Shown piece after piece: positions 34,388-57,618 of a DNA stretch of 64,000 bases. The notes under the pieces were generated by a model. The model saw only the letters and a list, made by a program, of their open reading frames with translations. It was not told the DNA's origin and made no database searches. Each line of letters opens with the position of its first letter. The first letter of the stretch is position 1. This DNA is from Ignavibacteria bacterium (GTDB lineage: Bacteria; Bacteroidota; Ignavibacteria; Kapaibacteriales; Kapaibacteriaceae): contig JADJIQ010000005.1 in NCBI GenBank assembly GCA_016707005.1, forward strand, positions 388,038 to 452,037, read 5' to 3'. The translations under genes and the position numbers were made by a program.

Positions 34388-34456
34388 TGCTAATGTGCTA
34401 ATGTGCTAATGTGCTAATCAACAATATTAGCACATTAGCACATTAGCACATTAGCA
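34388..34456. repeat. perfect 31-bp inverted repeat, each arm a tandem array of the octamer TGCTAATG
   Basis: 34388-34418 = (TGCTAATG)x3 + TGCTAAT; spacer CAACAAT; 34426-34456 = exact reverse complement. Confidence 0.95.
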
Positions 34457-34476
34457 CATCAGCGAAATCGAACGTG

Positions 34477-36201
34477 TCATTTCTGCAGGATCAGCATTTG
34501 TGTCTCGTCGATGTATGGTCCAGTGAGTCGACAGTAGAAAGTCCCCGAGCTTTGTGAGGTGAGGTCTATGGACACAGACGTAGCAACGTCTCGTTGAACA
34601 AGTTCTTTGTGTTGTATGAGCACAATTTCACCGATTGCATTGTATATGACAAGACTAACGGTTCCTTTCACAGGAACAATAAACTCAATATCAGCGATAC
34701 CAGTTGTGGGATTCGGAGAAATGGATGTAATGCCTAACAAAGGAGCTTCAGTTGAATTGGAATCGATGGGAGGGGGCAAATTCTTTGTCACTCCCAACTC
34801 TCCATCTCCGTTGATGAGTTTGAGATACAAACCTTCTCCGTTCAAATCTCGCACATCACTATACAACACTATAGCACCATGATCTCCATCAGAGATGATT
34901 CTTAGTGCATAGTTGGGTCCAATTTGTTGGAGACTCGCGAAGAACACTCCTTCTTCAGCCCAGAGAGGAGAACTTTGTGAGTTGAACCGCTGCGCACGAA
35001 TTCTGAGATCCGAATAGGGGCCCTCCAACCAAAATGCAATCACTCCAGCGTTCCGGTCCGAAACAACATAGTATCCCAAAAAACCAATAGAATCAGTTTG
35101 TACTTTGACTGGTTCAGCCCAAACTCTTGTGCCATCTTTTCCATACAAATCAAGAACGAGATCGTAAATGTTCTCCGAGTAACTTCGAGTGTACCCAGCC
35201 ACAAACAATTGACCAGTGCTGCTCACGGTGAGAGCTGAGAGTTCGCTATACTTGGTGGTATCAGAGATTAGCTTACCATTCTTTTCGAGCGAAAGCATAC
35301 CGGCTGAATCAACGTGTTGCAAGAAAATAGCCGGTTTGCGATATCTACTATCAAGAAATGCAAAATATGCTCCAGAGGATCCATCACTCGTCATGCCTAA
35401 CACGCGCTGCCCAACACTGTTCACCAGAAAACCAACGTCAAGATCACAAATAGTTGCACCTTTTGAACCCCATCGGACTTGACCTGTACTATCAACACGC
35501 TGCGAATAAAACGCGTAGTCCTGGTTGGGCATTTGCTCCGCCCAGCAAAATATCAGGCCGCCTTGATTATCGCTAACAACTCCAAACACTAGTGGATACA
35601 TCTGCATACCTCTATATATGTCAACACCGCCTTGTGTCCACAGATTTCTCCCACTTGAATTGATACGTTGGGTATGTAAGGCATAGCGTTGATTTTCAAG
35701 CTCATTCCAGAGTAAGATCGTACCGCCATTGCCATCCGAGACGGCACTAACAATTGTCCGATTTGCTGCTGACTCAAAGACGGGGATTCCATTGCTTGCC
35801 AGCATGGGCACACCACTCTTGTCCAACCGTTGCATGTATATATCTGGCTCTCCTGAGCGATAGTCAGACCAATAGATGGTGACCCCACCAACCGCATCAG
35901 GCACAATCGCACCAATCAGCTGATTTTCGGCTTCAACACACACATCCACACCATTGGTCTTCCAAAGGACTACACCTTTAGGATCAACACACTGGGCTTG
36001 TACGTCGCGGTTGACTGCAGAACTCTGAGACCAACCAATAACAACACTTCCATTGCTAGTTTTTGTGAGAATGTGCTGATGTCCATACCCGCCTACGTCC
36101 GTAATGGTAGTACCCCTCCATGGATTCATGGACCACTGCGCATGCGCACTAGTCACATCAAGTATGAGGATCAACACGATGAGATAAGGGCGGACCATCA
36201 C
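34477..36201 (-). CDS. secreted repeat (beta-propeller-like) protein with T9SS C-terminal sorting domain, paralogue A
   Basis: Signal peptide …SAHAQWS. Recurring ~55-aa blades (…GG.I..W.D.R....DIY.QR.D..G…W). CTD …SISPNPTTGIADIEFIVPVKGTVSLVIYNAIGE…GTFYCRL. AT-rich relative to flanks. Confidence 0.7.
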   Translation of the reverse strand: MMVRPYLIVLILILDVTSAHAQWSMNPWRGTTITDVGGYGHQHILTKTSNGSVVIGWSQSSAVNRDVQAQCVDPKGVVLWKTNGVDVCVEAENQLIGAIVPDAVGGVTIYWSDYRSGEPDIYMQRLDKSGVPMLASNGIPVFESAANRTIVSAVSDGNGGTILLWNELENQRYALHTQRINSSGRNLWTQGGVDIYRGMQMYPLVFGVVSDNQGGLIFCWAEQMPNQDYAFYSQRVDSTGQVRWGSKGATICDLDVGFLVNSVGQRVLGMTSDGSSGAYFAFLDSRYRKPAIFLQHVDSAGMLSLEKNGKLISDTTKYSELSALTVSSTGQLFVAGYTRSYSENIYDLVLDLYGKDGTRVWAEPVKVQTDSIGFLGYYVVSDRNAGVIAFWLEGPYSDLRIRAQRFNSQSSPLWAEEGVFFASLQQIGPNYALRIISDGDHGAIVLYSDVRDLNGEGLYLKLINGDGELGVTKNLPPPIDSNSTEAPLLGITSISPNPTTGIADIEFIVPVKGTVSLVIYNAIGEIVLIQHKELVQRDVATSVSIDLTSQSSGTFYCRLTGPYIDETQMLILQK

Positions 36202-36255
36202 TATTTCTAATTCTACTGGAGGGTGTCAGAAAACGTAAACTGAATGTACAGCAGG

Positions 36256-55460: not shown

Positions 55461-55554
55461 AACGAACTCCTAAAGATTGATATTGGTAATGGTGAGTGGA
55501 GAAATTACGTAGAACATACTCTGAGATGCAATACCCCAACCCCTTACCAATGTA

Positions 55555-57492
55555 TCAAGTACCTGTGGCATGCGTTCCTGGGATGTTCAACGTTGCGAAC
55601 AGCGCCTTGATCTCGCTGATCTTCATCATTCCCTTATCGCCTTCACCGTGGATGCGAACAGCTGCGGAATCGTTCTCGATCTCCTTACTTCCTACAACAA
55701 GGGCGTACGGGATCTTCTTCTGTTCGCTCTCAGCAACCTTACGGTTGATCTTCTCATTGCGAAGGTCGCAATGAACACGGAGCCCCATCTTTTCGAATTC
55801 GGCGGTGAGATCCCGTGCGAAAGATTGATGTGCGTCTGCGATCGGAAGAATGCTGACCTGTGTTGGTGCAAGCCAGAACGGGAAGTTGCCGGCGTAGTGT
55901 TCGATGAGGATCGAGATGAACCGCTCCATCGAGCCGAAGGGGGCTCTATGGATAATGACCGGACGATGTTTGGTGTTGTCTGCGCCAACGTACTCGAGGT
56001 TGAAACGCTCGGGCATCACGTAGTCTACCTGCACGGTGCCCAACTGCCATTTGCGACCTATAGCATCGCGCACGATGAAGTCGATCTTTGGACCGTAGAA
56101 TGCCGCTTCACCCTCACCGATGAAGTACTCAAGGTTCATTTCATCAGCAACGGCCTTGATCTCTGCTTGGGCACGTTCCCAATTTTCCAGATCGCCGCCA
56201 TATTTGGCTTCGTTATCATCACGGAACGAAAGGCGTGTGCTCACATCCATCCCGAACGTCTTGAAGACGAGCTGCGTGAGTTCCACAACGTTCTTGATCT
56301 CGTCCTTGAGCTGTTCGTGCGTGCAGTAGATGTGGGCGTCGTCCTGCGTGAACCCACGGACACGGGACAGACCGTTGAGTTCGCCGGACTGTTCGTAACG
56401 ATACACCGTGCCGAACTCGGCCAAACGCACCGGCAGGTCTCTGTAGGAACGTGGTTTTGACGAATAGATCTGGTGGTGATGCGGACAGTTCATCGGCTTG
56501 AGCAGGTACTGCTCGTCCTCCACCGTGATCGGGTCGAACTGCGAATCTGCATAGTACGGATAGTGTCCGGACGTCTTGTAGAGTTCAAGGTTGCCGATAT
56601 GGGGCGTGATCACTTCCTGATACCCACGCTTCACCTGTTCTTCTCGAAGGAATGCTTCGAGACGTCTGCGCAGGATGGTGCCGTTCGGGAGCCAGACCGG
56701 CAAGCCCCCTCCCACCATTGGCGTGATCATATAGATCTCGAGTTCCTTGCCCAGCTTGCGGTGATCTCTGCGTTCGGCTTCTTCTCGTTGTGTGATGAAC
56801 TCTTCCAGCTGTGCCTTCTTTGGGAAGGCGATGCCATAGATACGCGTGAGCTGCTTGCGCTTCTCATCACCGCGCCAGTAGGCACCCGCAACGGATAGCA
56901 ACTTCGGATACTTGATGAGTCCGGTCGATGGAACGTGTGTGCCACGGCACAGATCCGTGAATTCGCCTTGACGATAGAACGTGATCTCACTGTCCTTGAG
57001 ACCCTCAAGGAGTTCGAGCTTGTATTCGTCGCCCTTTTCCGTGAAATAGGCAACGGCATCTCCCCAGTTCATCTCCACGCGCTCATACGGAACATCACGC
57101 TTGACGAGTTCCATCATCTTCGCTTCGATCTTCGGCAAGTCTGCAACGCTGAGCTTTACGTCTCCCGGCAGATCAACGTCATAATAGAAACCGGCTTCAA
57201 TAGGAGGCCCGATGCCGAACTTCACACCCGGATACATGTTCTCCAGAGCTTCCGCCATCAAGTGAGCCGTGGAATGCCAGAAGATCTCCTTGCCTTCGTC
57301 GTTATCGAAGGTGACGATGCGGATCGTAGCGTCCATCGTGATCGGACGCGAAAGGTCATACGGCTTGTTGTTGACGTAGATACCAACAGCCACGCGTGCT
57401 AGGCCGTCGGAAATGCTCTTGGCGATATCCATGCCGCTCGCACCCATAGGGTACTCCCGCACGTCGCCATTCGGTAGTGTGATGTTGATCAT
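55555..57492 (-). CDS. thrS: threonine--tRNA ligase
   Basis: TGS N-terminus (MINITLPNGDVREY), editing-domain HSTAH, and the class II core (…RVRGFTQDDAHIY…). Confidence 0.95.
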   Translation of the reverse strand: MINITLPNGDVREYPMGASGMDIAKSISDGLARVAVGIYVNNKPYDLSRPITMDATIRIVTFDNDEGKEIFWHSTAHLMAEALENMYPGVKFGIGPPIEAGFYYDVDLPGDVKLSVADLPKIEAKMMELVKRDVPYERVEMNWGDAVAYFTEKGDEYKLELLEGLKDSEITFYRQGEFTDLCRGTHVPSTGLIKYPKLLSVAGAYWRGDEKRKQLTRIYGIAFPKKAQLEEFITQREEAERRDHRKLGKELEIYMITPMVGGGLPVWLPNGTILRRRLEAFLREEQVKRGYQEVITPHIGNLELYKTSGHYPYYADSQFDPITVEDEQYLLKPMNCPHHHQIYSSKPRSYRDLPVRLAEFGTVYRYEQSGELNGLSRVRGFTQDDAHIYCTHEQLKDEIKNVVELTQLVFKTFGMDVSTRLSFRDDNEAKYGGDLENWERAQAEIKAVADEMNLEYFIGEGEAAFYGPKIDFIVRDAIGRKWQLGTVQVDYVMPERFNLEYVGADNTKHRPVIIHRAPFGSMERFISILIEHYAGNFPFWLAPTQVSILPIADAHQSFARDLTAEFEKMGLRVHCDLRNEKINRKVAESEQKKIPYALVVGSKEIENDSAAVRIHGEGDKGMMKISEIKALFATLNIPGTHATGT

Positions 57493-57506
57493 GGACGAAA
57501 ATACGA

Positions 57507-57618
57507 GGTTACGGGGTTACGGGGTTACGCAGTTACGTCACTATGTCACTTCGTCACTATGTCACTTCGTCACTATGTCACTTCGTCACTAAGTCTTTAC
57601 GTCACGTCGTCACTGCTT
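57507..57618. repeat. 14 consecutive period-8 units: GGTTACGG-type x4, then (CACTATGT CACTTCGT)x3 and degenerate units
   Basis: Read directly. The first unit starts 15 nt from the thrS start codon. The last ~22 nt (57597-57618) encode the stop and C-terminal residues (…SSDDVT) of the upstream methyltransferase. Confidence 0.9.

Follow-up and report, generated by a model that had tools for sequence, protein, structure and literature searches.

Short-period repeat arrays beside -7-box promoters of a Kapabacteria species vary in length between strains and may have grown by slippage

Tandem arrays of 7-8-nt units in the gaps between bacterial genes have been catalogued since the cyanobacterial STRRs, a family whose units we take to be STRR1 (CCCCAGT) and others, and no mechanism or function is accepted for them. 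Slippage of the polymerase has been held responsible for an excess of heptamers (Mrazek 2007, cited in both PMC4679880 and PMC4692102); for TAACTGA repeats, MacGregor met the puzzle of one unit recurring at many places and proposed a role in a regulatory network (PMC4679880), and for GGGNATC repeats a modulation of transcription by G-quadruplex (G4) DNA was put forward (PMC4692102). Here we analyze five short-period arrays, A1 to A5, in a 64,000-nt stretch of DNA (the window) from an Ignavibacteria bacterium of a Kapabacteria lineage (assembly GCA_016707005.1, contig JADJIQ010000005.1, forward-strand positions 388,038 to 452,037). At a probability of roughly 55%, we read these arrays as slippage-driven, hypervariable repeats that are tolerated upstream of leaderless promoters of the -7-box type, with the units that carry a GTAAC core probably derived from the box itself. 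A narrow full-text literature search found no account of tandem repeats in Kapabacteria.

Five arrays in the gaps of one half of the window

A scan of the whole window with Tandem Repeats Finder (TRF) recovered all five arrays at the sites where a sequence-only reading of the DNA had placed them. They are listed below, together with a neighboring hairpin.

A1, 34383-34463, minus strand: inverted pair of octamer arrays, (TAATGTGC)x4.5, a 7-nt loop and (ATTAGCAC)x4.8 (TRF)
A2, 43072-43153, no strand assigned: 28-nt hairpin unit x2.9, that is, three units (TRF score 143)
A3, 49032-49123, plus strand: (ACTAGTT/ACTGGTT)x5, (GTAACTGA)x4-5 and (GTAACTA)x3, together an imperfect long hairpin (TRF)
A4, 54720-54802, minus strand: (TCAGTTAC)x2, then (GGGGTTAC/GAGGTTAC)x9, a direct array (TRF score 130)
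A5, 57502-57614, minus strand: (GRGGTTAC)x3, GCAGTTAC and (GTCACTAT GTCACTTC)x3.8 (TRF)
Terminator-like hairpin, 54854-54866, minus strand: followed by TTTTCG, downstream of a Riean_0653-family gene and upstream of A4

Repeats of this kind are not expected by chance. When the window was simulated 100 times with a second-order Markov model, and an array was defined by a period of 6-9 nt and at least 3.5 copies, no simulated window contained one, and the real window yields seven TRF rows. With periods of 7-8 nt and 4.5-12.7 copies, the arrays qualify as long simple sequence repeats (LSSRs; units of 5-11 nt in numbers above chance), except for A2, whose 28-nt unit lies outside that range.

Read in the sense of the gene that follows, A1 has the form (GTGCTAAT)n - attgttg - (ATTAGCAC)n; it is flanked by the stop codon of a gene for a protein with a type IX secretion system (T9SS) tail (34477) on one side and by the nadC start (34380) on the other, and contains a 34-nt inverted repeat (I1) with 97% complementarity. 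A2 occupies the divergent gap between pfkA and a porin/pst operon, and its unit, CACTCCGGGAG-tcttact-CTCCCGGAGTG, can alternatively be described as a repeated near-palindrome, CTCCSGGAG, which has five exact matches in the window (0.57 expected), all of them within A2; its dispersal, of the kind that defines REP elements, was looked for in the window only. A3 covers the stop codon of PhoU (49034-49036) and ends 7 nt short of a promoter element of rfbA, the -7 box treated below. In the sense of mscS, A4 reads (GTAACCCC/GTAACCTC)x9 followed by (GTAACTGA)x2, and sits between the terminator-like hairpin and the mscS -7 box. A5, in the sense of thrS, reads (GAAGTGAC ATAGTGAC)x3.8, GTAACTGC, (GTAACCCC)x2 and GTAACCTC, runs in an 8-nt register into the thrS -7 box, and covers the stop codon of an RlmL-like gene (57597-57599). 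By Pfam, the flanking genes have the identities that the sequence-only reading gave them, and the start codons are consistent with Pfam domains and with the gene calls of public assemblies.

The sequence-only reading had drawn from these sites a positional rule, namely that the arrays fill the larger gaps in the second half of the window and sit close upstream of start codons. The distances to the starts are indeed short (nadC, 2-7 nt; pfkA, 35; rfbA, 18; mscS, 20; thrS, 9-15), but A3 includes the stop codon of the gene before it, as does A5, and these two could equally be said to come after a stop. The five arrays do fill large gaps, but two gaps of similar size in the same half, 44497-44596 and 55461-55554, hold no array.

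Other parts of that reading stand as they were. The GTTAC core is present in three arrays (A3, A4 and A5), and A4 shares the octamer GGTTACGG with A5, identically oriented with respect to the gene downstream. Three arrays form hairpins: A1 folds at -55.6 kcal/mol (z -10.8), A3 at -48.6 kcal/mol (z -7.2) and A2 with a z of -4.0 to -4.6, its unit being a 29-nt hairpin; no structure is found in A4 (z +3.2) or A5 (z -0.15). The arrays are not CRISPRs, in which repeats of 23-55 nt alternate with unique spacers of like length; their own units abut without spacers. As intrinsic terminators they also fail, as had been noted from the want of a U-tract: the stems of A1 and A3 are AT-rich, no T-run follows them, and a terminator scan was empty at the arrays. 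At their gathering scores, Rfam models run over the window matched a tRNA alone (17091-17163) and nothing at the arrays, T-boxes, riboswitches and known leaders included.

One resemblance leads away from bacteria. The octamer GGTTACGG of A4 and A5 coincides with words of the fission-yeast telomere repeat, and literature matches to GGGGTTAC and its variants were confined to fission-yeast telomeres and primers, with none from bacteria. We take this match as a coincidence, because the arrays sit between bacterial genes in many assemblies.

Length alleles within the species and array-free junctions in its relatives

The species comes from activated sludge and wastewater, and its NadC protein is identical across many assemblies from such sources; a member of the 90%-identity cluster of this protein bears the NCBI name 'Ignavibacteria bacterium'. 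A metagenome scan for ThrS returned a conspecific contig (L093) together with relatives in a graded series. Over 15.1 kb, L093 shares 98.85% identity with the window, and none of the six gap openings in their alignment lies outside A3, A4 and A5: A4 differs by -24 nt (three units) and A5 by -16 nt (one double unit, or two units, absent from L093), and A3 has several openings. Beside an identical NadC, three A1 alleles were seen, with arms of 4+4 units, of 7+3 units (to which three CAGATTAA copies are added right against the ATG) and of 3+3 units. Measured between fixed anchors, the A3 interval is 132, 140, 156 or 160 nt by strain, and longer in L093, and the A4 interval is 109, 112, 117 or 133 nt. 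Alleles of A1, A3, A4 and A5 differ by 8, 16 or 24 nt, a change by whole units that is the signature of slippage. Four of the five arrays are thus length-hypervariable. The arrays are also real and not products of assembly or polishing, because the same alleles (four lengths each for A3 and A4) recur in independent NCBI, JGI and ENA assemblies.

Between species, the same junctions point to lineage specificity. We compared 80 ThrS-centered loci (L093-L172), each of up to 22 kb, and five relatives with PfkA proteins 84-91% identical. PfkA homologues carry the name Candidatus Kapabacteria; a locus of a Candidatus Kapaibacterium metagenome-assembled genome (MAG), L043, has 72% DNA identity to window positions 1475-3402. 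No array with a 6-9-nt unit is present in 64 of the 80 ThrS-centered loci. Upstream of thrS, four relatives whose ThrS is 89-91% identical (L097-L100) have no array and RlmL-thrS gaps of 20-34 nt; two others have different arrays at this place (GAGATGAC x3 in L094 and CTCCGTAA x3 in L095), and L096 has yet others (GGTACTG, GATGACS and ACACCTC). The PhoU-rfbA gap of relatives measures from about 20 to about 90 nt without an array, with L094 at the short end (about 20 nt, sequence TAAgtaGTAACTTTGcaggATG). From thrS to mscS the distance in most relatives is about 0-30 nt (78 nt in L106), again without an array, and among the relatives compared the Riean_0653-family gene (54912-55460), the terminator-like hairpin and A4 all stand between thrS and mscS in this species alone. 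A2 is missing from all five PfkA relatives, every one of which keeps the pfkA -7 box.

None of the five arrays is therefore a conserved element, and the families of units are specific to a lineage, as had been supposed, the same junctions in relatives being free of arrays or holding other ones. Judged from these comparisons, a conserved, sequence-specific function of the arrays is probably absent.

Near A2, a different element was seen. The palindrome GTTACCGAAAGGTAAC (window 43159-43174) lies 23 nt upstream of the -7 box of the porin/pst operon, TAGTTTCG (43198-43205), and related palindromes occupy the equivalent site in four of the five relatives that lack A2 (L203-L206), making it a candidate operator of the phosphate-transport operon.

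Leaderless-type promoters, slippage and its rivals

At four of the five arrays a promoter box stands between the array and the gene. A variant of the Bacteroidetes sigma-A -7 box (TAnnTTTG), written TAnnTT[CT]G, has 35 matches on the two strands of the window, nine of which fall 3-8 nt ahead of a gene start, against 0.09 expected (P ~1e-15); the starts, those of pfkA, mscS and thrS among them, are 16249(-), 16300(+), 26624(-), 26665(+), 43036(-), 51661(+), 54699(-), 57492(-) and 63679(-). The boxes that separate an array from an ATG, at 3-6 nt from the latter, are as follows.

thrS -7 box, 57496-57503, minus strand: TATTTTCG, 3 nt ahead of the ATG
mscS -7 box, 54703-54710, minus strand: TACCTTCG, 3 nt ahead of the ATG
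pfkA -7 box, 43043-43050, minus strand: TATCTTCG, 6 nt ahead of the ATG, kept in five relatives
rfbA -7 box variant, 49131-49138, plus strand: TAATTTCC, 3 nt ahead of the ATG

The position of the box at thrS, rfbA and pfkA is constant in relatives without arrays, with ..CCGTAACTTTGccccATG at thrS and GTAACTTTG, GTAACTTCG or GTAAGTTTG, 4 nt ahead of the ATG, at rfbA. An identical box also precedes a tRNA gene in a relative (L045), which argues that the box serves as a promoter and not in translation. The sigma-A box of Flavobacterium spans -12 to -5 (PMC9723704); given the spacing seen here, transcription would therefore start at or next to the ATG. No obvious -33 TTTG stands upstream of these boxes in the window, a -33 motif reportedly being likewise not found in F. 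johnsoniae (PMC7366714), and consensus sigma-70 promoters are not enriched in the window (10 found, 11.1 expected), which fits a promoter of another type.

On this layout, transcription most likely starts downstream of A2, A3, A4 and A5, which would leave these four outside 5' leaders. The suggestion that the arrays are structured 5' leaders is accordingly hard to uphold at thrS, mscS, pfkA and rfbA, where the box intervenes. Leaderless mRNAs look widespread in this Kapabacteria lineage, which would be unusual next to Bacteroides and Flavobacterium, where their share is 3.7-5.5% (PMC7366714, PMC9723704). The first 34 kb of the window contain no short-period array detectable by TRF, despite four promoters of this -7-box, leaderless type in positions 1-34000 (two divergent pairs with gaps of 40-50 nt).

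We propose that the arrays are LSSRs of recent origin in this Kapabacteria lineage, which would have arisen within very short ancestral junctions and would gain or lose whole units as strands slip at replication; template switching probably made the inverted copies that give A1 and A3 their hairpins. If the leaderless layout is right, sequence directly upstream of a -7 box could lengthen with no loss of expression. Coding sequence would be intolerant of units of 7-8 nt, most of which have stop codons, and selection would then spare arrays chiefly in the interval from a stop codon to the -7 box that follows. Units could not persist in coding sequence because 12 of 15 distinct units, taken in gene sense from the window arrays and those of L094, L096 and L101, carry a stop codon, as against an expectation of about 32%. 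Several arrays start exactly on the stop codon of the upstream gene. At most, the arrays would change the context upstream of a promoter, with A1 and A3 also adding a strong hairpin after the upstream gene.

The same account explains most of the positional rule. The ancestral junctions, about 0-35 nt long, held a stop codon, the -7 box and another 3-6 nt but little else, and it is because they were so short that an array ends next to the box; moreover, where an array takes up 80-100% of a gap of about 100 nt, its closeness to the start carries no statistical weight. That arrays lie just upstream of starts is thus mainly geometry plus selection, a by-product of very short ancestral gaps. Two further arrays, found in the 8.5 kb of conspecific sequence inspected past the right end of the window, break the rule outright. 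One is a second ATTAGCAC array (x4.9 at L210:2453-2491; also L209:2785-2883), which lies between convergent genes, and so at 3' ends, about 6 kb past the window end and more than 30 kb from A1. The other lies about 2 kb past the window end (L210:6548-6625, equal to L093:1898-1951), where GACGGAGG / GAAGTGAC units with an 8-nt period run in frame for about 26 codons within polA, at a site that corresponds to a hypervariable linker of DNA polymerase I.

Units with a GTAAC core (A3, A4 and A5) may be tandem duplicates of the -7 box region, whose ancestral form would be CCGTAACTTTG. Relatives have boxes of this kind, CCGTAACTTTG at thrS and GTAACTT[T/C]G at rfbA. In the window, three arrays run into the box in register: A5 as GTAACCCC GTAACCCC GTAACCTC GTATTTTC G, A4 as ...GTAACTGA CCATCTCC GTACCTTC G, and A3 as ...GTAACTA GATATCC GTAATTTCC; at L045 a gradient leads from GTAACCCC through GTAACTCC to GTAACTTCG. 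Within the Kapaibacterium MAG, eight of nine GTAACCCC runs (six loci) are followed after 0-45 nt by an ATG in whose sense the GTAAC strand reads; the ninth, at L045, is ahead of the tRNA gene. We infer that the box region was duplicated in tandem to found the GTAAC arrays, an origin that would explain why these units are fixed in orientation and stand in register with the box at 7 or 8 nt. A comparison of GTAACCCC orientation with crude open reading frame (ORF) calls across 92 loci proved too noisy in high-GC genomes.

A number of observations weigh against this reading. At loci from other bacteria of the Fibrobacterota-Chlorobiota-Bacteroidota (FCB) group, a box lies within 70 nt in 8 of 25 GTAACCCC arrays and is in register in three of those eight (L041, L045 and L079), and in the window A1 and the distal part of A5 have no relation to a -7 box. 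A2 retains three units and a constant length in seven of seven strains, with base swaps between its units. The leaderless starts are deduced from the position of the motif alone, and the neutrality of the arrays from their non-conservation. Most of all, units recur: ATTAGCAC is found both in A1 and at L210:2453-2491, GTAACCCC in A4 and A5, GTAACTGA in A3 and A4, and GAAGTGAC in A5 and the polA linker, and outside arrays the shared words are under-represented and among the rarest 6-mers. Purely local, independent seeding does not explain such sharing. An origin from frequent seed words was considered for it and ruled out on the same rarity of the words outside arrays.

Of the alternatives to slippage in short junctions, the one that survives best applies to the hairpin arrays and could be secondary to it. 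A1, A3 and perhaps A2 would be 3'-end hairpins of the upstream unit, acting as a terminator, an insulator or an exonuclease block in the manner of E. coli REP/BIME elements. Very stable stems do start at, or at most 14 nt from, the upstream stop codon, the rfbA -7 box comes straight after the A3 hairpin, and a hairpin of at least three units is retained in every A1 and A3 allele. Yet no U-tract follows the stems, relatives do without a hairpin at these junctions, and the commonest A1 allele has unequal arms of 7 and 3 units, such that we regard this role as possible but doubtful.

A shade less probable, and unlikely overall, is that the arrays are promoter-proximal contingency elements, in which copy number would retune downstream transcription by moving or replacing promoter contacts upstream. 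Their placement and behavior resemble the hypermutable promoter repeats of contingency loci, in that they adjoin -7 boxes, standing directly upstream of them, and show whole-unit length polymorphism among strains. Experiment elsewhere lends some weight: deletion of heptamer repeats changed the activity of the recO promoter in Nostoc and in E. coli reporters (bioRxiv 10.1101/2022.06.06.494920), and, in summary accounts of two further systems, heptamer repeats in a promoter or 5' untranslated region (5'-UTR) affect expression (PMC12721329; bioRxiv 10.1101/2021.05.14.444153). But the genes concerned are housekeeping genes (thrS, pfkA, nadC, rfbA and mscS) rather than surface or restriction genes, close relatives keep the same promoters with no arrays, alleles step by 16-24 nt with no phasing logic, and the two further arrays lie away from any promoter. 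For similar repeats, Rehm et al. found no link to phase-variable classes of genes (PMC4692102).

We give about the same low credence to a unit-specific process that creates or spreads arrays, either as a regular duplication of boxes in FCB bacteria with leaderless promoters or through a trans-acting factor that copies rare octamers (ATTAGCAC, GTAACCCC, GTAACTGA and GAAGTGAC). The sole candidate seen for such a factor is encoded in the window.

RayT-like (IS200/Y1 HUH) gene, 10896-11438, plus strand: ORF open from 10845, likely start 10896; candidate trans factor

The protein scores 21.7 bits against Pfam Y1_Tnp, under the 23-bit cut-off, has no significant match in the PDB, and contains HAH (in ..EDHAHLLV..) and ..RYHQ.., which we take to be the HUH and catalytic-tyrosine motifs. 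Homologues in Kapabacteria are 74-86% identical and carry PF01797, two of them being named 'REP element-mobilizing transposase RayT' by JGI.

That a dedicated activity of this sort, for instance the RayT-like protein, nicks and copies short units and spreads them between loci, as in REP/REPIN systems, strikes us as improbable. In its favor, distant loci share units though the words are rare, the gene is conserved in Kapabacteria, including on a contig of the array-rich Kapaibacterium MAG, and both A2 and the MAG palindrome GCGATAGCATGCTATCGC (three loci, next to arrays) are REP-like. The gene is apparently single-copy, however, abuts coding genes on both sides with no repeats flanking it, and in 2.18 Mb of loci none of the arrays has a copy of it nearby; the units, for their part, merge into local unique sequence such as the -7 box and stop codons, which favors growth in place. 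To our knowledge, no HUH enzyme has been reported to make tandem runs of 7-8 nt. A link between the RayT-like gene and the arrays is possible but unsupported.

Two arrangements from the wider survey are recorded here. In the Kapaibacterium MAG, GCGATAGCATGCTATCGC stands directly beside GTAACCCC arrays (L028:6768-6785, L036:2316-2367 and L045:5593-5610) and is absent from the window, and L082:6245-7850 holds an array with a 45-nt period, about 37 copies and two GTAACCCC octamers per unit.

Comparably improbable is the proposal that the arrays are binding sites, with a lineage-specific DNA- or RNA-binding protein recognizing units such as GTAAC and co-regulating the genes. The same rare units do occur at several loci, the GTAAC core keeps one orientation relative to the gene, and GTAACTGA contains the TAACTGA heptamer of PMC4679880. 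But units differ among loci, and among close relatives at one junction; with leaderless transcripts, the arrays would lie outside the regulated mRNA; no theme unites the genes, and no candidate binding protein was identified.

Very improbable is a G4 role, in which (GGGGTTAC)n would fold on the template strand and modulate transcription. By the measure of at least four consecutive tracts of three or more G with short loops, the A4 allele of the window has seven (six GGGG and one GGG), on a strand antisense to the downstream gene, a bias like that in PMC4692102, but A5 has just two tracts, the remaining arrays none, and the commonest A4 allele three fewer. Nor is there a sign that (GGGGTTAC)3 is special in its spread. 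It was met at 92 loci from many phyla, frequently next to further arrays of 7-8 nt, but in viral contigs its 4 hits compare with 4, 2 and 0 for three composition-matched control octamers, all small counts. We therefore dropped GGGGTTAC as a special cross-phylum unit, and its recurrence looks like part of a general background of such arrays of octamers.

An artefact of assembly or polishing is refuted by the same arrays and alleles in more than ten independent NCBI, JGI and ENA assemblies, even though in GCA_017994455.1 each of the two ATTAGCAC loci (including L173, upstream of nadC) contains runs of N.

Significance and comparison with known repeat systems

The species offers good material for the study of such repeats, with many strain-resolved wastewater assemblies that already show array alleles, and with a simple promoter layout, a -7 box a few nt ahead of the ATG, that fixes the place of the arrays relative to transcription. 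Neutral slippage, promoter tuning and a unit-specific process all become testable in it, and the last, if true, would provide a mechanism for the unexplained, genome-specific repeats of the STRR and TAACTGA types. For annotation, arrays like these inflate intergenic gaps, break assemblies and mimic leaders or CRISPR-like features.

Among described systems, REP, BIME and REPIN elements with their RAYT proteins share with this locus intergenic hairpins (the A2 units and the stems of A1 and A3) and the presence of a RayT-like gene in the window. REPs, however, are dispersed palindromes of 20-40 nt that flank their RAYT gene, whereas the units here are mostly 7-8 nt and in tandem, A2 is at one locus, and the RayT-like gene lacks flanking repeats. 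The heptamers of Haemophilus hmw (PMC12721329) and the TTTTGAT heptads of Vibrio ctxAB (bioRxiv 10.1101/2021.05.14.444153), as those systems are outlined there, share units of heptamer scale beside a promoter and a copy number that depends on the strain; the genes under their control serve virulence or the cell surface, in contrast to the housekeeping genes here, and partners of theirs, proteins or RNases, are known.

Closer are the cyanobacterial STRR, GGGNATC and GGGGA(C/T)T repeats (Rehm 2015, PMC4692102). Like the present arrays, these are biased to intergenic DNA, lie no more than 50 nt upstream of an ORF and have their G-rich strand antisense, vary extensively in length among close relatives, accompany housekeeping genes and have no settled function; the present arrays differ in having G4 potential in A4 only and no preference for four units.

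The TAACTGA repeats of Beggiatoaceae, Cyanobacteria and some Bacteroidetes (MacGregor 2015, PMC4679880) are likewise intergenic, often a few nt from a start and in forward orientation, mixed with other short units, missing from the same gaps in close relatives, and built from one unit at many loci. In the roughly 85 kb of the species' sequence examined in total, the GTAAC arrays, like those of the Kapaibacterium MAG, have this placement and sharing, and the two further arrays break with the placement. TAACTGA itself occurs here only inside the octamer GTAACTGA of A3 and A4, where the period is 8, and the true heptamers are ACTAGTT and GTAACTA. Units are diverse, and because a -7 box separates the array from the ATG, a role in the mRNA leader is unlikely here, unlike for the TAACTGA repeats.

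With the LSSRs (units of 5-11 nt; Mrazek et al. 2007, as presented in PMC4679880), the arrays share head-to-tail units of 7-8 nt beyond chance, a mostly non-coding location, a patchy phylogeny and slippage as the proposed origin; they depart from them in that 8-mers are as common as 7-mers, two inverted pairs form hairpins, and Kapabacteria are not among the lineages described in that presentation. The arrays are thus not new in kind, but fit repeats known from other bacteria (PMC4679880, PMC4692102).

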